Position numbers and translations under genes: made by a program. The notes beneath the pieces are model-generated. The model saw nothing but the letters and a program-made list of their open reading frames with translations. It ran no database searches and was not told the origin of the DNA. From a virus (taxonomy: Duplodnaviria > Heunggongvirae > Uroviricota > Caudoviricetes): DNA of 64,000 nt. The stretch spans positions 28,836-92,835 of IMG/VR virus record IMGVR_UViG_651053022_000007. One strand, 5' to 3'. Positions 37,103 to 63,174 of this stretch are shown piece after piece. Every line of letters begins with the position of its first letter. The first letter of the stretch is position 1.

Positions 37103-37263
37103 GGGAGCAGAATAATAACGGTCCGTAATTAATTCCGCAATAAAAAACCCGCTCGGCGGCGGGTTGTAGAAACTCTTCTAACGTCAGGCATAAAAAGCCC
37201 ATTGTTATGACGAATTTACCACAGATTCCGGAAAAATCAACCTTGTTACCTAGTTACCTTTTT

Positions 37264-37784: not shown

Positions 37785-37861
<77 letters not shown>

Positions 37862-37903
37862 AATTTGCACCGCAAATTTGAAGAGGTTTTAACTACATGT
37901 TAT

Positions 37904-37979
37904 GGGGCTATAGCTCAGCTGGGAGAGCGCCTGCTTTGCACGCAGGAGGTCTGCGGTTCGATCCCGCATAGCTCCACCA
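37904..37979 (+). tRNA. tRNA-Ala (anticodon TGC)
   Basis: GGGGCTATAGCTCAGCTGGGAGAGCGCCTGCTTTGCACGCAGGAGGTCTGCGGTTCGATCCCGCATAGCTCCACCA. Confidence 0.85.
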
Positions 37980-37994
37980 TCTCTGTAGTGATTA

Positions 37995-39193
37995 AATAAA
38001 AAAACGATATTGATTTCATCAAACTGCTCATCGTCCATTAACACTCCCGCATGCGTCAGCGCATCCAGCGGTGCTTTCAGGATATTGTCCAGGTCGCGAC
38101 GACGCTTATCCGGTGGCTCTGCAATCACCTTTATCGCCAGCCTTCCGGACAGGTTTAATTTCAGCCGCTGCTGGCGAACAATTAGCGCCACATCACGGCG
38201 ATAACGCTTTCCGGCCTCCGAGATGAAATACGTATTGCCATGACGTCGCCAGTAGGTATTCACCGTCGGCGGGTAAGGCAAAACAAATTCTATGCGTTCA
38301 GTCATACCTCCCAGGCCATGACCAATGATGTGATGCGGATCATCTGCCTGATTACCGCACGTCATGCATTTCTGCGTTTTTACCCAGCGCGTGTATACAG
38401 GCATCTCTTCCCGTTGTGGTTTCTGGCGCTGGAGATACTGAGCCGGAGACTCCGGATCAACGGCGATGCTTACTAACGTCTTTTCCTGGAGTGGGGGCTG
38501 TTGCTGGTGGACGTGAAGTGGCAGCGCAATATTTTTTGTGCGCTGCTTCAGTATGCTGGTGGCAGTCTGTTCTCCCGGTACGATGTCACTCTCACGGTAT
38601 ACGGAGCGGATTTTTTCCACCGGTAATCCCAGTGAACGACACAATACAGACTCCGGAAGCACATCAGCCACCTGATTGCAGACCGCCCACCAGGATAATT
38701 CGGCCAGCGATAACTCCCTCTCCTGCGTACCGCTGATTGCGTGACGGATGACGTCAATCATCCATGCTGACAAGTTTTGGTGAGCAAGTTGCTCAAGTGA
38801 TTCTGAGGTCTGGTCACACAACTGGTTGTCGCAGTGCCAGCACAACACCATTGCGCCGGTACCATAACGGTGAATGACGGTTTCACTGTGGTGATAATCA
38901 CCGTGTGGCCACTGGCAGGATTTAATATGGCGCAACAGCCAGTCAGACAGTGCACCAGCGCCGCCAGCAGCACGAATCACACGCTCATTGCTGAAAAATG
39001 GCAGTAATGATTTATCCTCCGCCAGCGGCTGGCGAACGGCAGGGACGACTCCGGATGGCAGGCCGCACATGCTTTTCGGTTCCGGCTCCACCAGCACTCG
39101 AGGATTATGAAATATCTGTATGGATTCACGGCCCGGCTTAAGGACCACCAGCCCAAGCTCAGGCACCAGAACAGGTCTAAGTAATACCCGCAC
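37995..39193 (-). pseudogene. YdfU-like (DUF968) :: RusA in-frame fusion remnant
   Basis: relative to intact copy at 61442..62860, about 62 codons at the YdfU/RusA boundary are missing (HGLGGM|TERIEFV) and rusA ends at EINIV; ORF 37889..39193 then reads through antisense tRNA-Ala. Confidence 0.6.
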
Positions 39194-39634: not shown

Positions 39635-39790
39635 TTACTCCTCAGGTTCGTAAGCTGTGAAGACAGCGACCTCCGTCTGGCCGGTTCGGATTCGTACCTC
39701 GCAGAGGTCTTTCCTCGTTACCAGTGCCGTCACTATGACGGTTAAACAGATGACGATCAGGGCGATTAACATCGCCTTTTGCTGCTTCAT
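39635..39790 (-). CDS. hokD: Hok/Gef-family type I toxin
   Basis: 51 aa MKQQKAMLIALIVICLTVIVTALVTRKDLCEVRIRTGQTEVAVFTAYEPEE; not in supplied track. Confidence 0.75.
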   Translation of the reverse strand: MKQQKAMLIALIVICLTVIVTALVTRKDLCEVRIRTGQTEVAVFTAYEPEE

Positions 39791-39807
39791 AGCCTGCTTC
39801 TCCTTGA

Positions 39808-40127
39808 CCTTTCGGTCCGTAAGAGGCTAATCTCTATGTGTCGCATAGATATGGCCTCAGATTAATGTTAAGCGTCTTGCAGGACGCGTAATGTTAACTG
39901 GGGCTTTTCTCTATCTGCCTTTTGGTGTTCATGCCTGAGACAGATAGCCTCAAGCACCCGCACCCTTGCCTTTCGGCACGTAAGAGGCTAACCTACATTT
40001 GTGAGACATAGATTGGGCCTCAGATTAATGTTAAGCGTCTTGCAGGACGCGAAATGTTAACTGGGGCTTTTCTCTATCTGCCTTTCAGTGTTCATGCCTG
40101 AGACAGATAGCCTCAAGCACCCGCAGC
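39808..40127. repeat. tandem direct repeat, 2 x about 160 bp, immediately upstream of hok
   Basis: units 39808-39968 and 39969-40127, a few percent diverged, each with internal palindromes. Confidence 0.6.
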
Positions 40128-47355: not shown

Positions 47356-47422
47356 ATTCTGTATTCTGGTCATTTGTTGATACCCTTACATAGCCAATCA
47401 GCACACTGAATCTCCCGTCCAA
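47356..47422 (-). pseudogene. DNA invertase (Pin/Gin/Hin family) N-terminal fragment
   Basis: MDGRFSVLIGYVRVSTNDQNT then unrelated sequence. Confidence 0.55.
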
Positions 47423-47438
47423 AAGCGCAAATCATGCC

Positions 47439-47888
47439 ATGCAGGCCAGAAACGGCCATTATTTAAAACCTCGGTTTACGAGAACTCGGCACAAGCGGGG
47501 AGAAAATGTTATGGCTGCGATCGCTGCCCTCGTGGACTCGTCGCCTGACGCACTGAATACGCTGAACGAGCTGGCTGCGGCGTTGGGCAACGACCCGAAT
47601 TTTGCGACCACCATGACTAGCGCGCTTGCGGGTAAGCAACCGAAAGATGCCACCCTGACGGCGCTGGCCGGGCTTGCTACTGCGGCAGACAGGTTTCCGT
47701 ATTTTACGGGGAATGATGTTGCCAGTCTGGCAACCCTGACAAAAGTTGGGCGGGATATTCTTGCGAAATCGACCGTTGCCGCCGTATACCGTTACTCAGT
47801 ACAGCGAATACCTGGACCAATCGACAAACATTCAGCGGTGGCCTTTCTGGTGAACTATCCGGCAATGCTTCTACAGCTGCAAAATTAA
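47439..47888 (+). pseudogene. side tail fibre (Stf) conserved middle segment, frameshifted relative to the C-terminal part
   Basis: SPDALNTLNELAAALGNDPNFATTMTSALAGKQPK...TKVGRDILAK matches lambda Stf middle region. Confidence 0.5.
47459..47484. promoter_or_regulatory. gix-like invertase crossover site
   Basis: TTATTTAAAACCTCGGTTTACGAGAA matches recalled gix consensus at about 22 of 26 positions. Confidence 0.4.
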
Positions 47889-47911
47889 AAACTGCCAGGA
47901 AAATAAGCAAT

Positions 47912-49105
47912 GTGGCTTTTGATGGTTCCTCCGATATCACATTAAAAGCAAGTCATGTTGGTGCGTTTGCCTTAGGGAAAACAGGAAGCACCGTTGCGAA
48001 TGATAAAGCAGTTGGATGGAACTGGAGTAGCGGAGCCTATAACGCAAATATTGGTGGTGCATCAACGTTAATTATTCATTTTTATATGGGAGAAGGAAGT
48101 TGTCCTGCAGCTCAGTTTCGGATTAATTATAAAAATGGCGGTATTTTTTATCGTTCAGCCCGTGATGGTTATGGTTTTGAAGCCGACTGGTCCGAATTTT
48201 ACACCACCACCAGAAAGCCTTCAGCAGGAGATGTTGGTGCACTGCCGTTATCTGGTGGTCAACTGAATGGTGCACTGGGTATCGGAACATCCAGTGCTCT
48301 TGGCGGTAATTCGATTGTATTGGGTGATAATGACACGGGCTTTAAACAAAATGGCGATGGTAATCTGGATGTTTATGCTAATTACGTCCATGTTATGCGC
48401 TTTGTTCCCGGAAGCATTCAAAGTAATAAGACCATAAATATTACGGGGCGTGTTAATCCCTCGGATTACGGTAACTTTGATTCCCGTTATGTGAAGGAAC
48501 TGTCCGGCAATGCCGCTACTGCAACAAAGCTGAAAACAGCACGAAAAATTGCTGGAGTTGGTTTTGATGGTTCTAGCGATATTTCAATTAGTGCCAAAAA
48601 TGTCAATGCATTTGCACTCCGACAAACAGGTAATACTGTTAATGGTGATACATCCGTTGGATGGAATTGGGATAGTGGTGCATATAACGCCATGATTGGT
48701 GGTGCATCTGCATTAATTCTTCACTTTAATATAAATGCTGGTAGCTGTCCTGCCGTACAATTCCGTGTGAATTATAAAAATGGTGGCATTTCCTACAGGT
48801 CGGCTCGTGATGGTTATGGGTTTGAATTAGGTTGGTCAGATTTCTATACCACGACACGAAAACCTTCAGCGGGAGATGTTGGTGCATATACGCGGACAGA
48901 ATGTAACTCAAGGTTTATTACAGGTATTCGCCTTGGCGGTCTGTCATCTGTTCAGACATGGAATGGTCCCGGCTGGTCTGACAGGTCAGGTTATGTCGTT
49001 ACGGGTTCAGTTAACGGAAACCGTGATGAATTAATTGATACAACACAGGCAAGGCCAATTCAGTATTGCATTAATGGGACGTGGTATAACGCGGGGAGTA
49101 TTTAA
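47912..49105 (+). CDS. side tail fibre C-terminal (variable, receptor-binding) region
   Basis: 397 aa with internal duplicated domain; directly followed by tfa. Confidence 0.55.
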   Translation: MAFDGSSDITLKASHVGAFALGKTGSTVANDKAVGWNWSSGAYNANIGGASTLIIHFYMGEGSCPAAQFRINYKNGGIFYRSARDGYGFEADWSEFYTTTRKPSAGDVGALPLSGGQLNGALGIGTSSALGGNSIVLGDNDTGFKQNGDGNLDVYANYVHVMRFVPGSIQSNKTINITGRVNPSDYGNFDSRYVKELSGNAATATKLKTARKIAGVGFDGSSDISISAKNVNAFALRQTGNTVNGDTSVGWNWDSGAYNAMIGGASALILHFNINAGSCPAVQFRVNYKNGGISYRSARDGYGFELGWSDFYTTTRKPSAGDVGAYTRTECNSRFITGIRLGGLSSVQTWNGPGWSDRSGYVVTGSVNGNRDELIDTTQARPIQYCINGTWYNAGSI

Positions 49106-50436: not shown

Positions 50437-53400
50437 TTGGAGCGCGATATGAGTCTCTCTTTCAGTGAAGCAAAATTAGAACAAGCGATCATTGAACTGT
50501 TACAGGATCAGGGATATCAACACCTGATCGGCGATAATGTCCCACGTTCGAGCCTCGATCAGGTCATTATCGAAGACGATCTCCGTCATTATTTAGCGGC
50601 ACGCTACCAGCCTGATGGCATTACTGAAGAAGAGATTCAGCGACTGATCAAACAGTTCACCACGCTTCCGGCCTCCGATCTTTATGAAAGCAACAAAACA
50701 TTTTGTCGCTGGCTGGCAAATGGTTTTCTGTTCAAACGCGACGATCGGCAACAAAAAGATCTCTATATTGAATTGCTCGACACCCGGCATCTACCTGCCG
50801 CACTGCGCCAGATATTTGACGCCGAAGATGTCCCGTTGCAACAGGCGGCGGAACTCCCGCCTTCCTATATGAATCCGCCGCTTAACCGGATTAAGATTGT
50901 TAACCAGCTTAAAATCTCCGGCAAAGATAATCAGACTCGTATTCCTGACGGCATTCTCTATATCAATGGTCTGCCATTGGTCGTCTTTGAATTTAAAAGT
51001 GCGGTGCGCGAGCAGGAAGCCAGTATTGGCGATGCCTGGAAGCAGCTCTGTAAACGCTATCGCCGGGATATTCCGCAACTGTTTATCTACAACGCGCTCT
51101 GCATTATTAGCGATGGCGTAAATAACCGGATGGGCAACCTGTTTGCGCCCTATGAATACTTTTACTCATGGCGCAAAGTCACCGGTAATGAAAACCGTGA
51201 ACAGGACGGAATTCCATCATTGCACTCAATGATTCAGGGGCTGTTTCATCCGGTACGTCTGCTGGATGTGATTAAAAACTTTATCTGCTTCCCGGATAAA
51301 GCCAAGCACGAAGTAAAAATTTGCTGCCGATATCCGCAGTACTATGCCGCCCGCAAACTCTATTACAGCATCAAGCAAGCGCGTAAACCTTTCGGTAGCG
51401 GTAAAGGCGGCACTTACTTTGGCGCAACGGGCTGTGGTAAAAGTTACACCATGCAATTTTTAACGCGTCTTTTGATGAAGAGCGTGGAGTTTGCCAGCCC
51501 GACCATTGTTTTGATCACCGACCGCACCGATCTGGACGATCAGCTTTCTGCGCAAATGTGCAACGCCAAAAATTACATTGGCGACGACACCATCGTTCCC
51601 GTTACCAGCCGTGAAGATTTGCGTAATCAACTGGCAGGACGCAATAGTGGCGGAGTCTTTCTGACAACGATCCATAAATTCACCGAAGACACCGAACTCC
51701 TTTCTGAACGCAACAATATCATTTGCATCTCGGACGAAGCACATCGTAGCCAGGTTAACCTCGACCAGAAAGTCATCGTTGATAAAGAAAGCGGAAAAGT
51801 GCGCAAAACGTATGGCTTTGCGAAATACCTGCACGATTCACTGCCAAACGCCACCTATGTTGGCTTTACCGGCACACCGATTGACGCGACGCTCGATGTC
51901 TTCGGTGAGGTGATCGACAGTTACACCATGACCGAATCCGTTCAGGATGAAATCACTGTACGCATCGTGTACGAAGGCCGTGCGGCTAAAGTGATCCTGG
52001 ACTCCAGCAAACTGGAAGAAGTCGAAAAGTATTACGAAGAGTGCGCAAACGCAGGCACCAATGAGTGGCAAATCGACGAAAGCAAAAAAGCCACCGCCAC
52101 CATGAATGCGGTTCTGGGTGATGAAGATCGGTTAAAAGCCCTCGCAGAAGATTTTGCCAAACATTATGAAAAACGCGTAGCCGAAGGTTCCACCGTAAAA
52201 GGCAAAGCCATGTTTGTTTGTGCCAGCCGTGAAATTGCCTGGGATTTCTACCGTCAGCTTAAAGCTATTCGCCCTGCCTGGTTTGAAGTGAAGCAAGCAC
52301 CCGATGGCGTCGTCCTGACGGAACAGGAGCAGAAAGAGTTACCGCCTTCAGAAATGGTGAAGATGGTCATGACGCGCGGTAAAGATGACGACGAGGCGCT
52401 TTATGATTTACTGGGCACAAAAGAATATCGCAAAGAGCTGGATAAGCAGTTCAAAAACGCTAAATCGAATTTCAAAATTGCCATTGTTGTTGATATGTGG
52501 CTGACCGGTTTCGACGTCCCGGAACTGGATACCATCTATATTGATAAACCCTTACAAAAACATAATCTTATCCAGACTATTTCTCGCGTTAACCGTAAAC
52601 TGGAAGGCAAAAGTAAAGGGTTAGTGGTGGACTACATCGGCATTAAAAGTCAGATGAACCAGGCACTGGCAATGTATTCCCGCATTGATGCCACCAACTT
52701 TGAAGATATTCAGCAATCGGTAATAGAAGTTAAAAACCATCTCGATTTGTTGGGGCAAGTCTTTTACGAATTTGACAGTCGGGATTATTTTAGTGGTGAG
52801 CCACAAGCGCAATTATCCTGCCTCAACCGCGCGGCGGAATTTGTTCTGCGTACCCAGAAAGTTGAACGTCGTTTTATGGGACTGGTTAAACGCATGAAAG
52901 CCGCCTACGACGTCTGCTGCGGCAGCGAAGCATTATCACAGACAGAACGTGACTATATTCACTATTATCTTGCTGTTCGTTCAATTGTTTTCAAACTGAC
53001 GAAAGGTGACGCACCGGATGTTACCCAGATGAATGCACGCGTTCGTGAAATGATTGCAGAAGCGTTAAAAGCTGATGGCGTAGAAGAAATTTATTTTCTT
53101 GGCGATAAAAAAGCGGAATCCATCGATATTTTTGACGAAGATTATCTGGCGCGAATTAACAAGATCAAACTTCCGGCAACGAAGATCCAGTTATTACAAA
53201 AATTACTGGAAAAAGCGATCAGCGACTTCAAGAAAGTGAACCAGTTGCAAGGGATTAACTTCACCCGCCGCTTCCAGGCGATTATAGATCGTTATAATGA
53301 GCGGCGAGAAGATGATGTACTCAACGGTGAAGAATTCGATACATTCAGTCAGGAAATGACCGATATTATCTATGATATTAAAACCGAAATGGGCACCTGG

Positions 53401-53598
53401 GCCGATTTAGGCATTGATATTGAAGAAAAAGCCTTTTTCGACATTCTTGCTCATATGCGCGATAAATATCAGTTCACCTATGACGATGAAAAAATGCTGT
53501 CACTGGCAAAAGAGATGAAAAGCGTGGTTGACAACACATCTAAATATCCTGACTGGAGTAAACGCGATGATATTAAAGCGAAACTGAAATTTCCCGAT
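50437..53598 (+). CDS. hsdR: type I restriction enzyme R subunit (HsdR), 3' end replaced by tRNA gene
   Basis: nuclease motif [10 protein letters not shown], helicase motif I GATGCGKS, motif II DEAHRSQ; ORF 50437..53715 reads through tRNA-Arg. Confidence 0.7.
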
Positions 53599-53675
53599 GC
53601 ATCCGTAGCTCAGCTGGATAGAGTACTCGGCTACGAACCGAGCGGTCGGAGGTTCGAATCCTCCCGGATGCACCA
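53599..53675 (+). tRNA. tRNA-Arg (anticodon ACG)
   Basis: GCATCCGTAGCTCAGCTGGATAGAGTACTCGGCTACGAACCGAGCGGTCGGAGGTTCGAATCCTCCCGGATGCACCA. Confidence 0.85.
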
Positions 53676-53711
53676 TCTCTTACTTGATATGGCTTTAGTG
53701 GCGGTATCAAG

Positions 53712-53951
53712 GTGAGTCAGTATCCGGAGTTGATAGCGCAGTTTTCAAGCGGTAATCAAACACGTATAAAACAAGGATTAATCGCAAAAGCACCACTTGA
53801 AGGTTGGCATTATGGCACTAAAGAAATCGTTAAAAAATTCCACATGTATCATCGTGTTGCGATTGAATATAGTGGCGGAATTTACGATATTGATAATTTA
53901 AGGAGGGCACACCTCATTTGCATGATGAAATTTATTACAGGAGATAGTTAA
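53712..53951 (+). pseudogene. HNH-type DNase bacteriocin/toxin, C-terminal domain fragment
   Basis: 79 aa; FHMYHRVAIEYSGGIYDIDNLRRAH resembles colicin/pyocin DNase core; no N-terminal delivery domain. Confidence 0.45.
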
Positions 53952-54200
53952 ATGTATAATTTTAAAGATAAAATAGAAGATTACACAGAGCGGGAATTCA
54001 TTGAGTTGCTTGGCGAGTTTACAAATCCAACCGGGGATAACGCTCAATTAAAAGGGGAAGAGCTTGACAAATATTGGGATGATCTAGAAGAACATCTTAC
54101 CAGAATTACACAACATCCGTTGATGAGCGATCTTATCTACTATCCTGCAAAGAAGGGAGATGATGAACCTGAAAACATCCTGAAAATTCAGGGAATTTAG
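53952..54200 (+). CDS. colicin/pyocin DNase-type immunity protein (Im family)
   Basis: 82 aa; DYTEREFIELL...HPLMSDLIYYP..GDDEPENI matches Im9-like pattern. Confidence 0.7.
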   Translation: MYNFKDKIEDYTEREFIELLGEFTNPTGDNAQLKGEELDKYWDDLEEHLTRITQHPLMSDLIYYPAKKGDDEPENILKIQGI

Positions 54201-54319
54201 TCTCCAGGATTCCCGGGGCGGTTCACAGTAATCATGCCGGGTCTGGCTGGCTAACACCCCATTATAAGGGGTACGAATAAAGTAACGGGGATGTTACTCA
54301 CCGATCTCCTTCACGGTAA

Positions 54320-54550
54320 TACGCAACTTTCTCCGGGGATTATCTCCGCGTAACTGACAACAAGGGGAAAACGCACGATGTGCTGACCGGAAGTGATGAC
54401 GGTCGCCACAGCAACACGTCTCTGGCGTGGGGGGCTGGCGTGCAGTTTAACCCGACCGAATCCGTGACCATTGACCTTGCTTATGAAGGTTCCGGTAGTG
54501 GCGACTGGCGAACGGATGCATTTATTGTTGGTATCGGATACCGTTTCTGA
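54320..54550 (+). pseudogene. Ail/Lom-family outer-membrane protein, 3' fragment
   Basis: ...SLAWGAGVQFNPTESVTIDLAYEGS...FIVGIGYRF stop; only about 76 codons. Confidence 0.6.
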
Positions 54551-54861: not shown

Positions 54862-54982
54862 GCACCAGAAAATCATTGATATGGCCATGAATGGCGTTGG
54901 ATGCCGGGCAACAGCCCGCATTATGGGCGTTGGCCTCAACACGATTTTACGTCACTTAAAAAACTCAGGCCGCAGTCGGTAA
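54862..54982 (+). mobile_element. IS1 internal fragment
   Basis: GCACCAGAAAATCATTGATATGGCCATGAATGGCGTTGGATGCCGGGCAACAGCCCGCATTATGGGCG...GCAGTCGGTAA. Confidence 0.6.
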
Positions 54983-55276
54983 CGAAAACCTGCTGTACCG
55001 CCATCGAAACGGGCACATACAGGCAGAGTGGCCGTGAAAGAAAGCAATCAGCGATGGTGCTCTGACGGGTTCGAGTTCTGCTGTGATAACGGAGAGAGAC
55101 TGCGTGTCACGTTCGCGCTGGACTGCTGTGATCGTGAGGCACTGCACTGGGCGGTGACTACCGGCGGCTTCAACAGTGAAACAGTACAGGACGTCATGCT
55201 GGGAGCGGTGGAACGCCGCTTCGGCAACGATCTTCCATCGTCTCCAGTGGAGTGGCTGACGGATAATGGTTCATGC
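54983..55276 (+). mobile_element. IS2 orfB internal fragment
   Basis: ...[45 protein letters not shown]...WLTDNGSC, ending at the same codon as the copy at 37080. Confidence 0.7.
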
Positions 55277-55669
55277 ACCATAAAGATTGTTTACGATGAA
55301 AATAATATTATTGTTGCCATAACCAAAGATGCCTCCACACTTAACCCTGAAGGTTATAGCGTCGTTGAGATTCCTGATATTACCGCCAACCGGCGTGCTG
55401 ACGACTCAGGTAAATGGATGTTTAAAGATGGCGCAGTCATTAAACGTGTATATACCGAAGAAGAGTTGCGCCTACAGACGGAAAACCAGAAAAAAATATT
55501 ATTACAGCAGGCCAGAGAAAAAACGCAGTTCTGGCAAACACAGCTTACTTTGGGGATTATCACTGATTCAGACAGACAGCAACTGATGAACTGGATGCGA
55601 TACGTGCAACAGGTTGAGACAACTGATACCTCGGTTCTTCCTGTAACATTCCCGGAACCACCAGAATAA
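55277..55669 (+). pseudogene. tail fibre assembly protein fragment fused behind IS2 fragment
   Basis: ...[28 protein letters not shown]...[11 protein letters not shown]. Confidence 0.55.
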
Positions 55670-55699
55670 GAAAAGGCCCGTACGGGCCTTAATTTGTTG

Positions 55700-56227
55700 T
55701 TATTCTGGTTTCTGTGGCCATTCAGGCTTTGCAGTATCCACACGGCTGACCATAACGCTGTAGCGTTCCCATGATTCCAGTCGTGTGCGTTCCTCATCAG
55801 TTGCCATATTCAGTCTGACAGCACGTTCCAGCGGTTGAATCACAGACTCCGCTTCGGAAAGCAAAGCGGCTTTTTGTAACTCTGCCTGCTGTTGCAGTTC
55901 CTGTTTTGTATATTCCCGCTTTACTACTTTACCATCCAGAAACTTCCAGTTTCCCGAGATATCGGCGCGACGGTTGGCTGTTATATTCGGTAACTCAACA
56001 ACACTTAACCCGTCAGGGTTAAGTGTTGATACGTCTTTCTCAATACAACGAATAATCCCCTTCTGGTCATAAGCTATTTTTAAAGTATCATCCTGAAAGT
56101 TTTTTAATTCGTCATACCAGTTTTTACCGTCTTCTGTATATAGCCAGATAACGCCAGCTTTTTTCGTAAGCTGATACTGCTCAATGGTTTTGGGGTTTCC
56201 GGCGGTAATATTTTTCAGATGTTGCAT
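55700..56227 (-). CDS. tfa: tail fibre assembly protein Tfa (alternative copy)
   Basis: 175 aa; [21 protein letters not shown]... Confidence 0.8.
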
Positions 56228-56242
56228 ATATTCTCCTGATGG

Positions 56243-57313
56243 CTATGCCTGTTCAACGTTATACCAGTTACCAGAAATGTATTTTTGTAGTGGTCGTGAC
56301 ACCATCCAGTCATCTCCATCAACCTCACCAATAATTTGCAATCCTGTTGTCACATGACCATTACCTGGTTCGCAAAGTCCTCCGCGATATAATGTGTCAG
56401 AACGTCTGCCTCCCAGACGCACATTTCTGATAAAAGAACTATTCAGGTAATCATTTAAGTTTGACCCCCAGCACCCACCAAATATATTTCCATCGGTGTT
56501 ATAACGGACGCCACCCGCAATAAGAGCACCCGGTGAAATAAAGGATTTATCGTTCGGGTTAAACTGCCATAAAGCATCATTACCGCCATCGCCACGCATA
56601 TGAATACATGGAACCGGAAATCCATACTGTTCTGTCAGTAAATACCCAAAGCTGACCGCGCCGGGATAGCCCTGTCCATTGCGAATGGACAAGCCCTTAA
56701 CTATCGGCACGTAAAGACCACCAGGAGTGGGATTCCAGGCAAACTGCGTCTGAACAAAAGGCGCGGTGGCATTATTCAACTGGTCTGCAAATGCGCCACT
56801 TCCATCAGGAATTATTCCCTGATGAATATATGCAACCCGCTTATAAAAATCAGCAGATGCGGGTTGAAGCCCAAATGCCAGTTGTCCATTTGAATAGAAT
56901 AAAAGGACACCGTCGCCGCCCTGTTTAATACCAGTGTCGTTATCTCCGAGAGTAATGGAATTACCGCCCAGTGCGTTATCTGTACCAAGCGCCAGCCCAC
57001 CATCAATTTTGGCCCCGTGGCTGACAGATATAGCACCTGTTCTCAGATTTATAGCGAATGGCCTTAATGGGCCGATATCACCGTTTTCGCCTTGTCCTTC
57101 AGCCGTCGGAATGAAATGAAGAAAATCTTCTGAACGACGGAAAATAAGACCGAAGGCATCATTGAAAATTCGCAGCGCATTCACCGTGCCAATTTTCAGT
57201 TCTCCGGTCATTTTATCGCCGGAACGCTGAACGGCGTTACCAGCCTTGTTTACCGTTTCCTGTAAACCGAGGTTCTGCAACGAAACGCTCTTGTTTGTGC
57301 AGGATATGAACAA
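56243..57313 (-). CDS. alternative tail fibre C-terminal (variable) segment
   Basis: 356 aa; start overlaps gix-like site (..NLGLQETVNKAGNAVQRSGDKMTGELK); followed by tfa. Confidence 0.55.
   Translation of the reverse strand: MFISCTNKSVSLQNLGLQETVNKAGNAVQRSGDKMTGELKIGTVNALRIFNDAFGLIFRRSEDFLHFIPTAEGQGENGDIGPLRPFAINLRTGAISVSHGAKIDGGLALGTDNALGGNSITLGDNDTGIKQGGDGVLLFYSNGQLAFGLQPASADFYKRVAYIHQGIIPDGSGAFADQLNNATAPFVQTQFAWNPTPGGLYVPIVKGLSIRNGQGYPGAVSFGYLLTEQYGFPVPCIHMRGDGGNDALWQFNPNDKSFISPGALIAGGVRYNTDGNIFGGCWGSNLNDYLNSSFIRNVRLGGRRSDTLYRGGLCEPGNGHVTTGLQIIGEVDGDDWMVSRPLQKYISGNWYNVEQA
57257..57274. promoter_or_regulatory. partial gix-like site (about 18 of 26 positions) abutting invertase-derived sequence
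   Basis: TTCCTGTAAACCGAGGTT then sequence continues as invertase codons. Confidence 0.35.
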
Positions 57314-57393
57314 ATATTTGAAGATAAATTAAGCGGAACAAGGACAGGCCGACCTGGATTAAAACGTGCTTTAAAGCGCCTTCAAAAAGGTGA
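57268..57393 (+). pseudogene. DNA invertase internal fragment (codons about 16-48)
   Basis: EVLQRNALVCAGYEQIFEDKLSGTRTGRPGLKRALKRLQKGDALVV then stop. Confidence 0.55.
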
Positions 57394-57668
57394 CGCACTG
57401 GTTGTCTGAAAACTGGACTGACTGGTTCACTGTATGCGGCATCTTGTCGTGCTGGTGGTGGAAGCCTAGAAAAAGTATCGGGTGTTACTGAACCGTGTTG
57501 ATACATCAACTGCACCTGATATTGAGTGGCCTACGAACCCTGTCAGGGAGTAATCATTGGGATTATGCCGCAGCACGTCTTAAGCAAGAACGTGCTGCGG
57601 TTGGATGCTATTTTTTCCCTGAAGCGGAAAACATTACTAGTATATTTACACTGACTCACACAGGCATC

Positions 57669-57854
57669 ATGCTCAATAACAAAGTGCTACCTGTAACCAT
57701 TTACAACGTAGTACCATTCAATAAAACATTCTGGAATTTAATCAAAAACAGCCAGGAATGCCCTACAAATACAGATAACGTATTGAATGAATGCTTTAAT
57801 AACCGTTGCACTCTGCAAATATGTCCTTATGGACTAAAACAACAAAGTCCATAA
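57669..57854 (+). CDS. small Cys-rich hypothetical protein (61 aa), AT-rich
   Basis: [15 protein letters not shown]...[26 protein letters not shown]; stop lies in a hairpin. Confidence 0.3.
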
Positions 57855-58134
57855 GGAGTTTACTCACATCTGACAAAATCAATATAAACAGCCCCTCCGG
57901 AGAGGGGCTGGAGAGTGGCGCTATGTGCCATTGCATGGTGCCGGGTGCCTCCCGGTGAATTCAGTACCAGCACCTGAATCCGCGATTATCCCATATACCT
58001 ACTCGCTGATTGCCCCTCCGCACAGGGGGATTCACCATGCCAGTTTCTTTTAACAAACTCCCCGCAAACCAGACAACAATCAACCGCCTGAATTGTGAAG
58101 TATTTAAAAATTTCTCCCGCTAACTGATACCCGG

Positions 58135-58221
58135 CTAACAGTCTGGCGTTTTCTTTTTCAGCAACGGGAAAGCAACAACCACCACACCCGCCACCAGCAC
58201 ACCGTCAGCCAGCACTGACAT
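58135..58221 (-). CDS. 28-aa hydrophobic peptide, start overlapping upstream stop (TAATG)
   Basis: MSVLADGVLVAGVVVVAFPLLKKKTPDC. Confidence 0.2.
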   Translation of the reverse strand: MSVLADGVLVAGVVVVAFPLLKKKTPDC

Positions 58222-58568
58222 TATCCGGCTGCCCGAAGTTCATCCATACCACAGGTCCTGGCTATTCTGTTGTACTCCTGAACAAGAGTAAATAATTCTG
58301 AATTAGCCACCATGAACTCATCGCAAACCCTCTGTATAGCATCACTATTCAGAATAATAACGTCTCTTCCCGAAAGACGATCAGGAGTACAGAACAAAAC
58401 TGTCAAACGGCTGAAGGCCTTTGCTCGTGCTGCATTGACTATATCAATACGCTGCCTAAGGATGAAACACCCCGACGCCTCATCAATATTCACTCTACCC
58501 ACACCATATGAATGATAAATATTTAATGCTGAAAAAACCATTAGACCGTATAACAAACACTCAATCAA
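58221..58568 (-). CDS. hypothetical protein, AT-rich cargo downstream of tRNA pair
   Basis: 115-aa ORF in low-GC DNA. Confidence 0.35.
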   Translation of the reverse strand: MIECLLYGLMVFSALNIYHSYGVGRVNIDEASGCFILRQRIDIVNAARAKAFSRLTVLFCTPDRLSGRDVIILNSDAIQRVCDEFMVANSELFTLVQEYNRIARTCGMDELRAAG

Positions 58569-58681
58569 TACTTAACAGAACTTTTATTTTTGACAAACAT
58601 AAAATATTTTCAACAATATCCTGAGCCAGGTATATTTCAGTATAAGGCTCTGCCGGAAGGAATCTGGAAGAATGAATATAG

Positions 58682-58755
58682 CGCGCTGTACTGGATTCGA
58701 ACCAGTGACCGATTGCTTAGAAGGCAATTGCTCTGTCCGGCTGAGCTAACAACGC
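58682..58755 (-). tRNA. tRNA-Arg (anticodon TCT), no encoded CCA
   Basis: reverse complement GCGTTGTTAGCTCAGCCGGACAGAGCAATTGCCTTCTAAGCAATCGGTCACTGGTTCGAATCCAGTACAGCGCG folds as cloverleaf. Confidence 0.7.
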
Positions 58756-58855
58756 TGAATACCGATAATGGACCGCCATCGGGGACCCGCCCCCGCACCA
58801 ACAACCCTGTTATCGTGTCGTCTGCTCTTCCTGATAAGCTAATGGCGGTTTGTGA

Positions 58856-58931
58856 TGGTGGCCCTTGCTGGATTTGAACCAGCGACCTGGCGATTATGAG
58901 TCGCTCGCTCTCACCACTGAGCTAAAGGGCC
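58856..58931 (-). tRNA. tRNA with CAT anticodon (Ile2/lysidine-type or Met)
   Basis: reverse complement GGCCCTTTAGCTCAGTGGTGAGAGCGAGCGACTCATAATCGCCAGGTCGCTGGTTCAAATCCAGCAAGGGCCACCA. Confidence 0.8.
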
Positions 58932-58980
58932 GGGAGCAGAATAATAATGGTGCGTAATTAATTCTGCAATCTCATCCGTT

Positions 58981-60030
58981 TCAAACGATTAAACCCTGAA
59001 CTTCCCTGACTGTCTGCTCAAAACGTCCGGTCTCCAGCTCAACGCCAATCGCACGACGCCCGAGCGCCAGTGCCGCTTTTACCGTTGAACCTGAGCCCAT
59101 AAAAAAATCTGCAACCAGGTCACCCGGACGACTGCTTGCGCTGATTATCTGCTGCAGCATTTCTGCCGGTTTTTCGCACGGATGTTTCCCGGGATAGAAC
59201 TGCACCGGTTTATGTGTCCACACATCCGTGTACGGCACCTGCGCCGTCACACCAAAATACCGCCGCAGATGCTTATATTCACTCTGCAGCTCCACATACT
59301 GCCGGTTCAGTGACGTATACGTATCCACCAGCTGGTGGTGGGGCTTTTCCAGTTCACCGCGCTGATGTTTCTCTTCTGCCACCCGGGCAAACAGCGACTG
59401 TAATTTCAGATAATCGCTTTCGTTCGGTAGCTGCCACTGACTGGCACTGAACCAGTGCGACACCATGTTTTTCTTTCCTGTGGCATCTGCAATCTGTTTT
59501 GCCGTTATCCCCAGGGCCGCGCGCGCATCACGAAAGTAAGAAATCAGCGGGGCCATCACATGCTGTTTCAGTGCACTGCCCTTCGCCGCATACCCGGCAT
59601 CTTTCGGACGATACGGCCCCTGATAATGTTCCGCGAACAGAATGCGCTCTGTGGCGGGGAAATACGCCCGCAGGCTTTCCTTGTTGCATCCGTTCCAGCG
59701 TCCGGACGGCTTCGCCCAGATAATATGGTTCAGCACACTGAAGCGTTCACGCATCATGATTTCGATATCAGATGCCAGGCGATGACCACAGAACAGGTAA
59801 AGACTTCCGGCAGGTTTCAGCACCCGCCAGAACTGCGCCAGACACTGGTCCAGCCACTTCAGGTAATCATCGTCGCCCTTCCACTGGTTATCCCAGCCCT
59901 CAGGCTTCACTTTAAAGTACGGCGGGTCCGTGACTATCAGGTCAACAGAATTTTCGGGTAACGACCGGATAAATTCCAGGCAGTCGGCGTTGATTAACTC
60001 ACAACTGGATATTTTTACAGTATTAGCCAT
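58981..60030 (-). CDS. DNA methyltransferase (N6-adenine/N4-cytosine class, DPPY motif)
   Basis: 349 aa; DLIVTDPPYF and FFMGSGST motifs. Confidence 0.75.
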   Translation of the reverse strand: MANTVKISSCELINADCLEFIRSLPENSVDLIVTDPPYFKVKPEGWDNQWKGDDDYLKWLDQCLAQFWRVLKPAGSLYLFCGHRLASDIEIMMRERFSVLNHIIWAKPSGRWNGCNKESLRAYFPATERILFAEHYQGPYRPKDAGYAAKGSALKQHVMAPLISYFRDARAALGITAKQIADATGKKNMVSHWFSASQWQLPNESDYLKLQSLFARVAEEKHQRGELEKPHHQLVDTYTSLNRQYVELQSEYKHLRRYFGVTAQVPYTDVWTHKPVQFYPGKHPCEKPAEMLQQIISASSRPGDLVADFFMGSGSTVKAALALGRRAIGVELETGRFEQTVREVQGLIV

Positions 60031-60181
60031 AGATCAATAAGCACTTCTCTGATAGGCTCATACCGCTTTTGCGCAAAGCAGATGGGCCTGAGGTTTGCTT
60101 GTGACCCCAACGCATGAGCAGATGGCTGGTGGGTGCCCCTAACACCCACCAGCCGCCCATTTACCACAAATAAAAAAGCCT

Positions 60182-60379
60182 TCACTGCGGAAGGCGTCTG
60201 TAACAACCGAACTGATAGTCTGCCAGACCCGCCATAACCAGCTGGGTCAGTATTAACTGGCAGCGTTCGCGTGAAAGGTAAGTATTCTGCGCAATCTCCC
60301 CGGCTGTCGCCGGTTCGGTGACGCTTAATTCATTAAACACCACTCTGGCGGTTTCTGTCATATCCTGCTGTTTCAGCAT
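60182..60379 (-). CDS. small hypothetical protein
   Basis: likely start MLKQQDMTE within ORF 60182..60466. Confidence 0.3.
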   Translation of the reverse strand: MLKQQDMTETARVVFNELSVTEPATAGEIAQNTYLSRERCQLILTQLVMAGLADYQFGCYRRLPQ

Positions 60380-60605
60380 GTCTTTTTCCCTTTTCCGGTT
60401 AACGTGACACACCAATAACTCTTGTCGAAAAAGCCAGCAAGCTGAAAGACAGGTATTCACCGCCACCAGCGCGTTTACTGTACTGACGCGATTTCAGTCA
60501 TAAAAAACCCGCCAGGCGGCGGGGTGTAAAAAATCTTCTAACGTCAGGCATAAAACGCCCATCGTTAGAGCAAATTTACCACAGATTCGGGAAAAATCAA
60601 CAACA

Positions 60606-61427
60606 CTATCGCGTTACCCTCTTTAACTGCCGCTCCGCCCATGCCTCTTCAATGTCAAACCGAACCACCAACGTATCGTAAAAGCGTTTCACTGATTTTT
60701 TCCACGTATCAAGCGTGATAGCACTCGTCACTTTGCATATGGCATTAAATGCCTCCGTTGATGGTAGTCTTTCACAGCCACGACCACCACAACGCTGGCA
60801 GTCTCTGATAACAGGCATACCACGTTTTACCGACTCTTCACGATGAATGGCGACACCACGCCCACGGCAATCCTTACAGGCGGTGGAAACCTCACCCTTT
60901 CCGCCACACTCCGGACAGGCAACTTTTACCACTTCCTTGACTTTTTTCCATTCTTCCCAGTAAGACGAATACACACCTTTCGTACACTTTGCCCATACCG
61001 GCGGCTTACCATCCGGATACTGGACCTTGTTTGTAAAAACTACGCTTTCAATAAATTTTTCCCCATAGCAACAAGGGCACTGCTTTTTACTCGCTACGCT
61101 GCGGGCATAATCCTCAAAAGCGTACGAAGCCATAATGCGCATCACTACCGGTTTTATTTCTGCCGGAAGTTTTCTCAACGCCGCCACACGATCGCACCGA
61201 CTGAGTGCATAATCTGCCAGTAATTCTGTTGCCCGCGCCCTGTCATTCATACTGATGCCCATTTTCCCCAGGAACGCAGAAAACCCCATCTCAGCCCGAT
61301 TCTGTGTCATGCCCTGCGCGGCCATCACATCAGTGATACTCAGCGCATCTTTCGACGTTGAGGCCGATGCATCAGTCAGGCCGGGGGATTTTGGGGAGTA
61401 GTATTTCGGTAAATCTTCCAGTTTCAT
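60606..61427 (-). CDS. lambda-type late antiterminator Q
   Basis: 273 aa; similar to lambda Q (FHSPKSP-like YYSPKSP, DVMAA.GM, ASYAFEDYARS, Cys clusters, C-terminal TWKKSVKRFYDTLVV). Confidence 0.75.
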   Translation of the reverse strand: MKLEDLPKYYSPKSPGLTDASASTSKDALSITDVMAAQGMTQNRAEMGFSAFLGKMGISMNDRARATELLADYALSRCDRVAALRKLPAEIKPVVMRIMASYAFEDYARSVASKKQCPCCYGEKFIESVVFTNKVQYPDGKPPVWAKCTKGVYSSYWEEWKKVKEVVKVACPECGGKGEVSTACKDCRGRGVAIHREESVKRGMPVIRDCQRCGGRGCERLPSTEAFNAICKVTSAITLDTWKKSVKRFYDTLVVRFDIEEAWAERQLKRVTR

Positions 61428-61441
61428 TTTTTGACCTGCTC

Positions 61442-61804
61442 TTAATGCATTATGGGGTAAATCTTCACCCCCAGACGTCCACCAGATACTGGCTGACCAC
61501 GAACGATATTGATTTCATCAAACTGCTCATCGTCCATTAGCAACCCCGCATGCGTCAGCGCATCCAGCGGCGCTTTCAGAATATTGTCCAGATCACGGCG
61601 GCGCTTATCCGGTGGTTCTGCAATAATTTTTATTGCCAACCTTCCGGACAGGCTTAATTTCAGCCGCTGCTGGCGAACAATAAGCGCCACTGCCCGGCGA
61701 TAACGCTCCCCGGCTTTTGATACAAAATATGTGCTGCCACGACGACGCCAGTAAGTGTTCACCGTTGGCGGGTAAGGCAAAACAAATTCTATGCGTTCAG
61801 TCAT
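61442..61804 (-). CDS. rusA: RusA Holliday junction resolvase
   Basis: 120 aa; LPYPPTVNTYW...PDKRRRDLDNILKAPLDALTHAG. Confidence 0.8.
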   Translation of the reverse strand: MTERIEFVLPYPPTVNTYWRRRGSTYFVSKAGERYRRAVALIVRQQRLKLSLSGRLAIKIIAEPPDKRRRDLDNILKAPLDALTHAGLLMDDEQFDEINIVRGQPVSGGRLGVKIYPIMH

Positions 61805-62860
61805 TCATGCTTTCCACTTCAGGACACCCGAATTTCTCGCGTGCATTAAAAAACGAATCAGCAACAACAGCTGGCTGCCGTGTTTTTCTTCAAAATCTTT
61901 TACCCCGGCGTGCAGTTCGTTATGACATTTACGGCACAGCGGAATAACAAACAAATCATCAGCCTTTGTTCCCATCCCTCCCAGTCCATGACCAATGATG
62001 TGATGCGGATCATCTGCCTGATTGCCACACGTCATGCATTTCTGCGTTTTTACCCAACGCGTGTATACAGGCATCTCTTCCCGTTGTGATTTCTGGCGCT
62101 GGAGATACTGAGCCGGTGACTCCGGATCAACGGCAATGCTGACCACCGTCTTTTCCTGTGGCGGGTTTTGCTGGTGGGCGTGAGGCAGCGGCGCAAGATT
62201 TTTTGTGCGCTGCTTCAGTATGCTGGTGGCGGTCTGCTCTCCCGGTACGATGTCGCTTTCACGGTACATTGAGCGGATTTTTTCCGCACGCAACCCCAGC
62301 GAACGACGTAATACCGCTTCCGGTAGCGCGTCCGCCACCTGATTGCGGACCGCCCACCAGGATAATTCAGCCAGCGATAATTCCCGTTCCTGCGAGCCAT
62401 TCATTGCATGGCGTATGACGTCAATCATCCATGCAAACAGGTTTTGGTGAGCAAGTTGCCCGAGTGATTCGGAGGTCTGGTCGCGCAGCTGGTTGTCGCA
62501 GTGCCAGCACAACACCATTGCGCCGGTACCATAACGGTGAATGACGGTTTCACTGTGGTGATAATCGCCGTGTGGCCACTGGCAGGATTTAACATGGCGC
62601 AGTAACCAGTCAGACAATGCGCCAGCGCCACCAGCAGCACGAATCACTCGTTCGTCGCTGAAAAATGGCAGTAATGATTTATCCTCCGCCAGCGGCTGGC
62701 GAACGGCAGGAACGACCCCGGACGGCAGATTACGCATGCTTTTCGGTTCCGGCTCCACCAGTACCCGGGTATTGTGGAATACCGGCATGGATTCACGGCC
62801 CGGCTTAACGATCACCAGCCCGAGTTCCGGTACCAGAACAGGTCGAAGTAATACCCGCAC
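61805..62860 (-). CDS. YdfU-like (DUF968) protein with HNH-like C-terminal Cys/His motif
   Basis: 351 aa; CMTCGNQADDPHHIIGHGLGG...IPLCRKCHNELHAG. Confidence 0.6.
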   Translation of the reverse strand: MRVLLRPVLVPELGLVIVKPGRESMPVFHNTRVLVEPEPKSMRNLPSGVVPAVRQPLAEDKSLLPFFSDERVIRAAGGAGALSDWLLRHVKSCQWPHGDYHHSETVIHRYGTGAMVLCWHCDNQLRDQTSESLGQLAHQNLFAWMIDVIRHAMNGSQERELSLAELSWWAVRNQVADALPEAVLRRSLGLRAEKIRSMYRESDIVPGEQTATSILKQRTKNLAPLPHAHQQNPPQEKTVVSIAVDPESPAQYLQRQKSQREEMPVYTRWVKTQKCMTCGNQADDPHHIIGHGLGGMGTKADDLFVIPLCRKCHNELHAGVKDFEEKHGSQLLLLIRFLMHARNSGVLKWKA

Positions 62861-63174
62861 GTTACCTCCAGATGCGTTGCTGGAATGTGCGGGACGGACG
62901 CGGTGGGCGTTCAGAGTAAGGAAGCCTGACGGAGATTATCCAGTGACGATAATCGAGGCTGAGGGCTTTCTTAATCTCGTATCCGCGTCTGCGGTAGTTA
63001 TGAATTAGCCATTCGGCCTGTTCTTCAGTACATGGTGGGTGTTGCGTGCCGGTGATTACCGCGCTCCGGGATCACTGGCCGGAATGATTGAACAGGCCTG
63101 GTGCAGTGCCCTGGGGGTGGATGCCGGATGCCATGCCACGCTGGTGCATTTTCCGGCCTGGCCGGCACACCGGG

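Follow-up and report, generated by a model that had tools for sequence, protein, structure and literature searches.

What occupies the slot between the late antiterminator gene Q and the lysis genes of a lambdoid prophage when it carries no stx? In Stx phages of the 933W type, this slot holds the toxin genes, and the order is Q, tRNA genes, stxAB, esterase and lysis genes. We analyzed a window of 64,000 nucleotides from a Caudoviricetes virus record (IMGVR_UViG_651053022_000007). The IS1 and IS2 fragments present in it would suggest a Shigella origin, but we rejected this idea, as every segment of the window that we examined was approximately 100% identical to E. coli ST131 DNA. A preliminary description had placed three unrecognizable ORFs in the AT-rich DNA at 57400-58980, in the slot that holds stx in Stx phages. 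Accessory cargo does lie between Q and the position of the lysis genes of this lambdoid prophage, although 57400-57639 falls outside the slot. We propose, with a probability of about 0.88, that the region arose by decay of an accessory ("moron") cassette that is widespread in CFT073/ST131-type lambdoid prophages. This cassette is common and largely catalogued, and the finding is in that respect ordinary.

The late regulatory part of the window was annotated as follows.

60606-61427, minus strand: late antiterminator Q gene, 273 aa (Pfam PF03589 Antiterm, 9.8e-51)
60508-60523, minus strand: GC-rich hairpin and T-run, a tR'-like terminator just downstream of Q (terminator scan: CCCGCCGCCTGGCGGG then TTTTTTATGA)
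60182-60379, minus strand: small conserved phage ORF (phrog_331, function unknown, 3.9e-42)
58981-60030, minus strand: N6/N4 DNA methyltransferase gene, 349 aa (Pfam PF01555, 2.4e-44)
58856-58931, minus strand: tRNA with anticodon CAT (ARAGORN; Rfam tRNA, 72.5 bits)
58681-58755, minus strand: tRNA-Arg with anticodon TCT (ARAGORN; Rfam tRNA, 68 bits)

RefSeq labels the Q homologs in ST131 and CFT073 "antitermination protein" and the ST131 counterpart of the methylase "DNA-methyltransferase." The phrog_331 ORF, which is 65 aa in RefSeq homologs and reaches 60466 in its maximal form of 94 aa, is a "hypothetical protein" at the equivalent place in ST131. The position of the hairpin at 60508-60523 suggests that it is the tR' of the late promoter region. 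PGAP calls the counterpart of the tRNA(CAT) tRNA-Ile, not Met, in ST131, CFT073 and O43 RM10042; it is probably a tRNA-Ile2 of the lysidine type. The order Q, methylase, tRNA(CAT), tRNA-Arg(TCT) that had been described was recovered in full on the minus strand using Pfam, ARAGORN and Rfam, and the low GC content of the cargo was confirmed (0.335-0.38 at 58400-58700 and 0.35 at 57600-57900). The reported absence of an Stx-like ORF also held: the largest ORF within 57400-58680 is 119 aa and none of the ORFs there matched a toxin family in Pfam or NCBIfam, indicating that this interval contains no Stx-like gene. The window resembles the late region of Stx phages in that, on the late-transcript strand, Q is followed by tRNA(CAT) and tRNA-Arg(TCT) and these by accessory cargo, but it is without stxA and stxB, and its cargo comprises an sRNA, an anti-adaptor and small proteins.

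The cargo and its flank contain the following features, in the order in which the late-transcript strand runs.

58221-58493, minus strand: phrog_2873 gene, 90 aa in the window (92 aa in other sequences), starting at GTG 58493 (phrog_2873, 7.9e-55)
58232/58233, junction without strand: 87-bp deletion (ST131 prophage alignment, with 100% identity on either side)
58135-58221, minus strand: 28-aa hydrophobic ORF, a remnant corresponding to the C-terminal transmembrane half of a TciB-like DUF3927 protein (Pfam PF13064)
57880-58069, minus strand: STnc100-family prophage sRNA, full length (Rfam RF02076)
57824-57857, plus strand: 12-bp perfect hairpin (inverted repeat I2) across the iraL stop codon (TCCTTATGGACT / AGTCCATAAGGA)
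57639-57854, plus strand: 3' fragment of iraL, codons 41-111 and stop (100% identity to CFT073 IraL residues 41-111)
57639/57640, junction without strand: rearrangement breakpoint that joins the iraL interior to the tail-fibre/pin end of the same prophage type (ST131 comparison)
57274-57639, plus strand: pin-type recombinase pseudogene fragment, tail-fibre-assembly fragment and 3' end of a class I SAM-methyltransferase gene (100% identical to ST131 L002 3985-4350)

None of the three ORFs had been considered recognizable. Instead, the four-cysteine ORF corresponds to IraL residues 52-111, the 28-aa ORF to DUF3927 and the 115-aa ORF to phrog_2873, and the hairpins belong to STnc100. We compared the region with its closest relatives. 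The ST131 prophage was 100% identical over 57639-58232 and 99.3% identical over 58233-63044, apart from a gap of 87 bp. In CFT073, ST131, phage mEp460_ev081 and 80 IMG/VR contigs, the space between Q and the lysis genes is occupied by the intact cassette, which consists of the tRNAs, the 92-aa gene, DUF3927, STnc100 and a convergent iraL; among the 80 IMG/VR loci, 78 contained DUF3927 and none contained either window junction. The window shares the order Q, tRNAs, 92-aa ORF, DUF3927, STnc100 and convergent iraL, in near-identical DNA, with ST131 and with the iraL locus of CFT073 (the "potB genomic island" prophage; Hryckowian et al. 2014, PMC4045071). It lacks the iraL promoter, iraL codons 1-40 and the 87 bp at the boundary of the 92-aa gene and DUF3927, and where these relatives continue downstream into esterase, holin and lysis genes it has pin/tail-fibre DNA. 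CFT073 itself differs in that IS200C replaces the methylase and three tRNAs are present. On the basis of these comparisons, the late-transcript strand of the intact form carries Q, the small ORF, the DNA methylase, the tRNA-Ile2-like tRNA, tRNA-Arg(UCU), the 92-aa helical-hairpin gene, the TciB-like DUF3927 gene and STnc100, while iraL runs convergently from its own sigma-70 promoter, with an esterase (nanS-p type) and a holin next. Two private lesions in such a cassette account for the ORFs that had been described in the window.

The first lesion is the 87-bp deletion, which joined codon 87 of the 92-aa gene to an internal position of DUF3927. The 87 bp removed comprise the end of the 92-aa gene (its last five codons and stop), a spacer of 35 nt and the opening 34 nt of DUF3927 (11 codons and 1 nt). 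The last three codons and stop of the 90-aa gene are consequently neo-sequence, with the terminal residues ITHLG changed to AAG, and the N-terminal 15 codons of the 43-aa DUF3927 form are lost or unusable. The spacer was kept in 77/77 IMG/VR loci scored for spacing, none of which had the 58232/58233 junction, and the best E. coli genome matches all spanned the extra 87 bp, the deleted form being absent among them. The deletion thereby gave the upstream gene a novel end, AAG followed by a stop, and produced both the TAATG overlap and a 28-aa ORF retaining the second TciB hydrophobic helix only. Indeed, the 28-aa ORF scored above the gathering threshold of PF13064 (58.3 bits vs. 25 bits; 7.3e-16), but it covered only profile positions 26-53 of 53 and did not reach full length (about 43-54 aa). 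The preliminary description had coupled the 115-aa ORF to the 28-aa peptide through TAATG. Both ORFs exist, and the TAA of one overlaps the ATG of the other; the overlap is a by-product of the private deletion and not a designed operon feature.

The intact DUF3927 gene is a homolog of tciB in the tciA-tciB(-tciC) cassette, which is found beside tRNA genes in P1-like plasmid-prophages and in the lambdoid phage JLK-2012. The full 43-aa CFT073 protein matched phrog_1470 ("TciB-like") and was 67% identical to JLK-2012 TciB; DNA homology between the two loci (92%) begins midway in tciB and extends across the STnc100 region, and they also have the ribosome-binding and start region in common. JLK-2012 has the order Q, tRNAs, tciA, tciB, esterase, S and R, placing the genes in the same slot, behind Q and tRNAs and ahead of esterase and holin. 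In contrast to the tci cassette, tciA (TerB-like) is missing here and an unrelated 92-aa gene is in its place. Full TciB proteins have two hydrophobic segments in an alignment with P1-type and lambdoid TciB; CFT073-type TciB is without the first of these, and the window copy has lost still more. A tBLASTN search of phages with TciB (50 aa) found nothing, a result probably explained by the shortness and low complexity of this query.

The strong hairpins that had been noted were found: one has a stem of 12 bp (57824-57857), and another, at 57889-57910, is terminator-like. The hairpins within 57880-58069 are, by covariance match, an STnc100 sRNA gene: the score was 132.4 bits against a gathering threshold of 47 (E 5e-30) over model positions 1-206 of 206, and the gene ends in its own intrinsic terminator at 57889-57910, a hairpin and T-run detected in the terminator scan. 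STnc100 is at the equivalent position in CFT073 and mEp460_ev081, and O43 RM10042 contains five copies. The family is reported to be encoded by prophages, to be related to PasD and often to flank Pas sRNA genes (bioRxiv 10.64898/2026.05.13.724894); the window copy shares the full-length match, the conserved stems and the terminator with this family, and no difference was detected. The 12-bp hairpin at 57824-57857 probably serves as the iraL terminator.

The third ORF had been described as a convergent 61-aa four-cysteine protein. It is convergent and has four cysteines, but it is 60 aa long (57672-57854, plus strand) and is a remnant of IraL, being 100% identical to residues 52-111. IraL is a characterized RssB anti-adaptor of UPEC CFT073, the gene of which has its own sigma-70 promoter (Hryckowian et al. 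2014, PMC4045071). We identified iraL by matching the published transcription start sequence (PMC4045071) in the ST131 homolog; the published 5' end, ACATCACCAGCAAGGCATAAACAAGGAAAC, is present in ST131, and the iraL 5' region (ST131 locus 7600-8000) had no match in the window. The four-cysteine ORF is the C-terminal part of a 119-aa open frame, in which residues 49-119 equal CFT073 IraL 41-111 and the residues upstream are unrelated to IraL; the sole ATG-initiated ORF begins at the Met preceding IraL residue 52. The IraM model NF007393 (NCBIfam) matched at 1.4e-24 and 86.4 bits, below its 121-bit cut-off, and only over profile positions 43-113 of 114. In the paralog IraM, RssB is bound by a core spanning residues 1-78; the flexible C-terminal tail is not needed for the complex to assemble (PMC10844676). 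The PmrD-like beta-barrel core is incomplete in the window IraL, the first 40 residues being replaced by unrelated sequence. The second lesion, a non-homologous rearrangement at 57639/57640, put other DNA in place of the iraL promoter, its transcription start and its first 40 codons. What remains is an ORF that starts at an internal Met (IraL 52-111) and lacks most of the RssB-binding core, and the slot is now cut off from esterase, lysis and structural genes. Among evaluable IMG/VR loci, iraL was present and intact in 51 of 75.

The sequence on the other side of this breakpoint, 57274-57639, is not cargo; ST131 L002 3985-4350 is annotated as the same pseudogenes. The two breakpoint sides lie approximately 34.5 kb apart in opposite orientation in ST131 strain 4/1-1 (1488359 and 1453809). 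Opposite orientation is the signature of an inversion junction, and the rearrangement was apparently an inversion, the reciprocal junction of which is not within the window. An IS-mediated or homologous origin was ruled out because the breakpoint has no IS and a microhomology of only 1 nt. A 70-nt junction query found no place with a coverage of at least 80% in 5,426 complete E. coli genomes, and an exact scan of GTDB species representatives found no 57639 junction. An exact look-up of the 60-aa ORF returned only contigs that break inside an otherwise normal iraL, all with the 87 bp, and look-ups of the exact 115-aa and 119-aa products returned none. As the exact configuration of the window was found in no other sequence, it is possible that it is an artefact of assembly or construction.

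We then considered the "115-aa ORF" (58221-58568, minus strand, TTG start), which contains the 90-aa gene and a 25-codon N-terminal extension beyond the GTG. The extension is not conserved and is interrupted in O43 RM10042, whereas homology, and the starts of all distant homologs, begin at GTG 58493; the phrog_2873 match spans the conserved core (positions 17-104 of 108). By its pattern of sequence change, the 92-aa gene is a real protein-coding gene under purifying selection. Three diverged types, at 67-72% nucleotide identity, are colinear and stop-free, with a pairwise dN/dS of 0.26-0.29 compared with about 1 in off-frames. A non-coding origin of this conservation, whether through an RNA element, an ORF in antisense or merely recent shared ancestry, would fit the lack of a RefSeq/PGAP annotation over the gene in the CFT073-type records inspected, the weak Shine-Dalgarno in the window and CFT073 type, and the low dN/dS (0.24-0.38) of the antisense frame that shares the wobble position. 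However, the antisense frame has stops in two of the three types, and the differences fall mostly at third codon positions (39-43 vs. 18-25 at positions 1 and 2). In addition, homologs of 91-97 aa with 22-41% identity in Citrobacter, Providencia and other E. coli elements share the start position, and the ETEC4079 variant has an AGGAG Shine-Dalgarno and GTG start and is annotated in RefSeq as WP_001017777.1. We therefore consider a non-coding origin highly improbable. The gene was intact in 80/80 IMG/VR loci surveyed, and its region was matched in 1,314 of 5,426 complete E. coli genomes. An AF2 model of the protein is a helical hairpin (pLDDT 83), for which Foldseek against PDB and BFVD returned generic helical hairpins only (E >0.2). 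Nothing significant was found in Pfam and NCBIfam, the best PDB profile hit had an E of 0.04, PADLOC component HMMs gave no match at E up to 1 for the 92-aa protein, DUF3927 or IraL, and named members of its cluster are all "hypothetical protein." A TerB/TciA tellurite-resistance-like identity was ruled out by an hhalign probability of 0.1% against TciA and no TerB match in Pfam. The gene lies 35 nt upstream of DUF3927 in 77 IMG/VR loci, and its homolog stands ahead of tciA and tciB, and all three ahead of holins, in a Citrobacter prophage. This repeated linkage suggests that the gene may be a functional partner of the Tci module; we tentatively raise the possibility that the protein is a partner or regulator of this membrane module, for example in envelope/cell-division modulation or superinfection exclusion in lysogens.

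Two further readings concern the ORFs as a set. In one, the deletion would have made an operon from which the 90-aa protein is translated together with the TciB remnant, and this peptide would act as a small membrane toxin or modulator. A stop-start overlap such as TAATG can support translational coupling, the 28-aa ORF could be translated from its ATG into a membrane peptide, and MSVLADGVLVAGVVVVAFPLLKKKTPDC, a single hydrophobic helix with a basic tail, resembles many small membrane peptides. However, the arrangement is unique to the window and shows no sign of selection, the full TciB has two hydrophobic segments, and no Shine-Dalgarno is evident apart from the overlap; we consider such neo-functionalization unlikely. 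The least probable reading, in our view, is that of three novel cargo genes acting as a functional, possibly toxic unit under Q antitermination. The ORFs, the TAATG overlap, the AT-rich composition and the location in the slot that carries stx agree with it. Against it, the 28-aa and four-cysteine ORFs are pieces of known genes, produced by lesions missing in the surveyed relatives, the extension that lengthens the gene to the 115-aa ORF is not conserved, and the four-cysteine ORF runs opposite to late transcription with its own promoter gone.

In the decayed cassette, transcription from pR' under Q through the minus-strand slot is plausible, because the minus-strand elements lie downstream of Q and the pR'/tR'-like terminator. 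A putative sigma-70 site, TTGAAA-16-AAAAAT at 58613-58586, may additionally allow expression in the lysogen. The proposal that all three ORFs would be transcribed under Q antitermination is therefore plausible, from position, for the minus-strand elements but not for the four-cysteine ORF: the iraL remnant lies on the opposite strand and would be antisense to the Q-dependent transcript. The two tRNAs, which would read the rare AUA and AGA codons, and STnc100, as a base-pairing sRNA, are plausibly still working, as perhaps is the 90-aa protein, whereas the functions of IraL and TciB would be lost in the window.

As a by-product, our analysis provides evidence of selection for a conserved 92-aa phage gene beside tciB that is unannotated in the CFT073-type RefSeq records inspected. 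Its main value is the correct annotation: three apparent mystery genes in a toxin slot become a degraded copy of a common regulatory moron cassette, which comprises an RpoS-stabilizing anti-adaptor, an sRNA, tRNAs and small proteins. At this locus, iraL appears to be dead and would make no contribution to the RpoS phenotypes conferred on UPEC and Shigella strains by an intact copy.

The slot, the accessory-cargo site between the late antiterminator gene Q with its tRNAs and the lysis genes, was laid out in the window as follows.

Features of the slot in the window (positions, strand, identity)
60606-61427, minus, Q antiterminator gene
58981-60030, minus, N6/N4 DNA methyltransferase gene
58856-58931, minus, tRNA with anticodon CAT, after the methyltransferase gene
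58681-58755, minus, tRNA-Arg(TCT)
58221-58568, minus, 115-aa ORF
58135-58221, minus, 28-aa hydrophobic ORF
57672-57854, convergent, four-cysteine ORF

The order Q, methylase, tRNA(CAT), tRNA-Arg(TCT) given in the preliminary description was thus present on the minus strand, and GC content dropped to 0.34-0.38 downstream of the tRNAs. As stated there, the ORFs were flanked by hairpins, and ORF and profile searches found no Stx-like ORF in the slot. The convergent four-cysteine ORF was also present, at 60 rather than 61 aa. The region had been taken to start at 57400; however, 57400-57639 consists of recombinase, tail-fibre-assembly and methyltransferase gene fragments and is not slot DNA. The interpretation as cargo in the Q slot held, whereas the ORFs, described as unrecognisable, are recognisable and largely broken. 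The cargo finding itself is already known.

Using window 57639-59000 as the megablast query against 5,426 complete E. coli genomes, we found 99.8-100% identity to a prophage of ST131 strains and to CFT073; the best matches always covered the query in two pieces. On the late-transcript strand of this intact locus, Q is followed by a small ORF, a DNA methyltransferase gene (IS200C in CFT073), tRNA-Ile and tRNA-Arg. After tRNA-Arg come ~500 bp without annotation, a 43-aa "DUF3927 family protein", a convergent 111-aa "anti-adapter protein IraM" (WP_000871291.1), an esterase gene (or what remains of it), holin, lysozyme and the remaining lysis genes.

The unannotated stretch holds a 92-aa gene, in the window part of the 115-aa ORF (58221-58493, minus; 90 aa in the window), for which the CFT073-type records listed carry no RefSeq annotation. 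Coding was assessed on three diverged versions, the CFT073, O43 RM10042 and ETEC4079 types, which are colinear at 67-72% nucleotide identity with all 92 codons open. Differences numbered 39-43 at third codon positions vs 18-25 at positions 1 and 2, and pairwise dN/dS was 0.26-0.29 in the 92-aa frame vs ~1 in off-frames; the single antisense frame in which dN/dS was comparably low was interrupted by stops in two of the three versions. Conservation set in sharply at the GTG at 58493. In the ETEC variant, AGGAG precedes this GTG and RefSeq annotates the gene as a 92-aa protein (WP_001017777.1), the upstream 25 codons lie in a separate frame in O43 RM10042, and distant homologs of 91-97 aa (Citrobacter, Providencia, other E. 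coli elements) share the start position. Taken together, these observations show that the 115-aa ORF holds a real coding gene of ~92 aa. It matches phrog_2873 (8e-55), a small family with 22 representatives among 1.84 billion proteins, and its linkage to tciB is recurrent. The AlphaFold2 model was a two-helix hairpin (mean pLDDT 83); Foldseek against PDB and BFVD, a PDB profile search, PADLOC and comparison with TciA gave nothing informative for this protein. In the window copy, AAG takes the place of the final five residues, ITHLG.

The 28-aa ORF matches Pfam DUF3927 (7e-16) at profile positions 26-53 only. DUF3927 is labelled "TciB-like" in PHROGs, and the gene is a tciB homolog. The TAA of the 115-aa ORF does overlap the ATG of the 28-aa ORF (TAATG), but this is not the coupling that had been proposed. 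Alignment with ST131 revealed that 87 bp are deleted in the window at 58232/58233. The upstream gene thereby loses its final five codons and stop, the 35-nt spacer is gone, and the DUF3927 gene lacks its first 34 nt. The apparent coupling arises because the upstream frame now reads the surviving DUF3927 CGG-ATA-ATG as GGA-TAA. The spacer was retained in all 77 IMG/VR loci scored for spacing, none of which had the deletion junction, and the best E. coli genome matches to this junction all spanned the extra 87 bp. In P1-like phages tciB adjoins tRNA genes, and in the lambdoid phage JLK-2012 it lies in a Q-tRNA-tciA-tciB-esterase-S slot. Full TciB has two hydrophobic segments, whereas the CFT073-type protein has one; the window copy retains this single segment without the native start.

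The four-cysteine ORF belongs to iraL. The CFT073 protein WP_000871291.1 has been characterised as IraL, and the published iraL 5' end was found upstream of the ST131 gene. In the window, a 119-aa open frame matches residues 41-111 of CFT073 IraL at 100% identity, whereas its first 48 residues are unrelated; the NCBIfam IraM profile aligned at positions 43-113 only (86 bits vs a 121-bit cut-off). In IraM, an IraL paralog, residues 1-78 form a PmrD-like beta-barrel that binds RssB, and the cysteine-bearing C-terminal tail is flexible, complex assembly proceeding without it (PMC10844676). Since the four-cysteine ORF starts at the Met ahead of IraL residue 52 and its promoter is missing, we read it as a dead remnant, the tail of IraL.

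By homology, the hairpins of the slot are those of the sRNA STnc100: 57880-58069 (minus) is a full-length Rfam match (132 bits vs a gathering score of 47; E 5e-30), ending 3' in the terminator hairpin 57889-57910. STnc100 has been described as a prophage-encoded sRNA related to PasD sRNAs (bioRxiv 10.64898/2026.05.13.724894). It also follows DUF3927 in CFT073 and phage mEp460_ev081, and O43 RM10042 carries five copies in one Q-to-esterase slot (locus L005, 4639-5618 and 2668-2880), four of which are arrayed in tandem, repeating every ~260-270 bp. The short ORFs overlapping STnc100, one of them called a pseudogene in RefSeq, are unlikely to be genuine.

The iraL truncation lies at a breakpoint, 57639/57640. 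Left of 57639, the sequence matches the tail-fibre/pin end of the same ST131 prophage at 100% identity; in strain 4/1-1 that DNA lies ~34.5 kb away in opposite orientation, the signature expected of one inversion junction. At the joint the two parental sequences have just 1 nt in common and there is no IS element; the reciprocal junction is absent from the window. A 70-nt junction query found no place in the 5,426 genomes with at least 80% coverage; the complete E. coli genomes and IMG/VR loci that were checked showed neither this junction nor 58232/58233. The segments examined were each ~100% identical to ST131 DNA, in an order forming a dense patchwork with clean junctions. This patchwork may reflect a heavily rearranged strain, a misassembly or a constructed sequence.

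Further features were noted outside the slot. Sequences at 54881-55270 that look by eye like an IS1 InsA ORF and an IS2 transposase fragment mark further rearrangement next to the slot; the IS2-like fragment runs on in frame into a tail-fibre-assembly gene (ORF 55028-55669). The tail-fibre invertible segment by the pin remnant (55276-57273) is inverted relative to ST131, and other pieces of it lie ~9 kb away (47358-48498); the window therefore holds parts of two related pin/tail-fibre cassettes. An odd patchwork at 50437-54550 comprises a 1092-aa type I restriction HsdR ORF (50437-53715) with tRNA-Arg(ACG) inside its 3' end (53599-53675), then a colicin/pyocin immunity ORF (53952-54200) and a stretch resembling a Lom/Ail-type outer-membrane protein C-terminal fragment (54380-54550). 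A tRNA-Ile(GAT)/tRNA-Ala(TGC) pair (37785-37979), normally found in rRNA-operon spacers, lies between a Q-like fragment (37140-37453) and a fused DUF968-RusA ORF (37889-39193, minus); the whole window is devoid of 16S and 23S matches. The flanks of this pair match a second ST131 prophage at 100% identity, with ~550 nt replaced. The other prophage block has two sok antitoxin RNA matches in tandem (39788-40122, minus; 107 and 101 bits), and isrK Hfq-binding RNA and C4 antisense RNA stand side by side at 11991-12176 (plus).

For the slot itself, a working can be proposed. The terminator-like hairpin at 60508-60523, a short way downstream of Q, would fit a pR'/tR' unit, in which case Q-modified polymerase would read through the methylase gene, tRNAs, 90-aa gene, STnc100 and the tciB remnant. 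In the lysogen, the small genes might also be driven by a weak sigma-70-like site (58613-58586), but promoter-like sites are not enriched over chance in the region. RefSeq assigns the CAT-anticodon tRNA to Ile in ST131, CFT073 and O43 RM10042. This tRNA and tRNA-Arg(TCT) would read the rare codons AUA and AGA, respectively. The presumed role of STnc100 is that of a base-pairing sRNA, and IraL and TciB functions would be lost at the window locus.

In a survey of 80 IMG/VR loci, the 92-aa gene was intact in every one, DUF3927 was present in 78 (frame intact in 75), and iraL was present and intact in 51 of the 75 evaluable loci. Elsewhere, the O43 RM10042 slot has a TolA-like gene after the tRNAs and an AraC-family regulator directly upstream of the 92-aa gene. 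In this diverged version of the slot the regulator (Pfam HTH_18, 241 aa) occupies 3257-3982 of L005, ending 88 nt before the GTG, and 164-889 of L003, 21 nt before the longer TTG-start ORF; the two genes may form one operon. Phage mEp460_ev081 has a TolA-like gene downstream of DUF3927, the ETEC4079 slot a DUF1883 gene, and a Citrobacter prophage tciA between the 92-aa homolog and tciB. This varied cargo at the Q-to-lysis site of related prophages indicates that the slot is a variable moron site, of which the window carries one common variant in damaged form.
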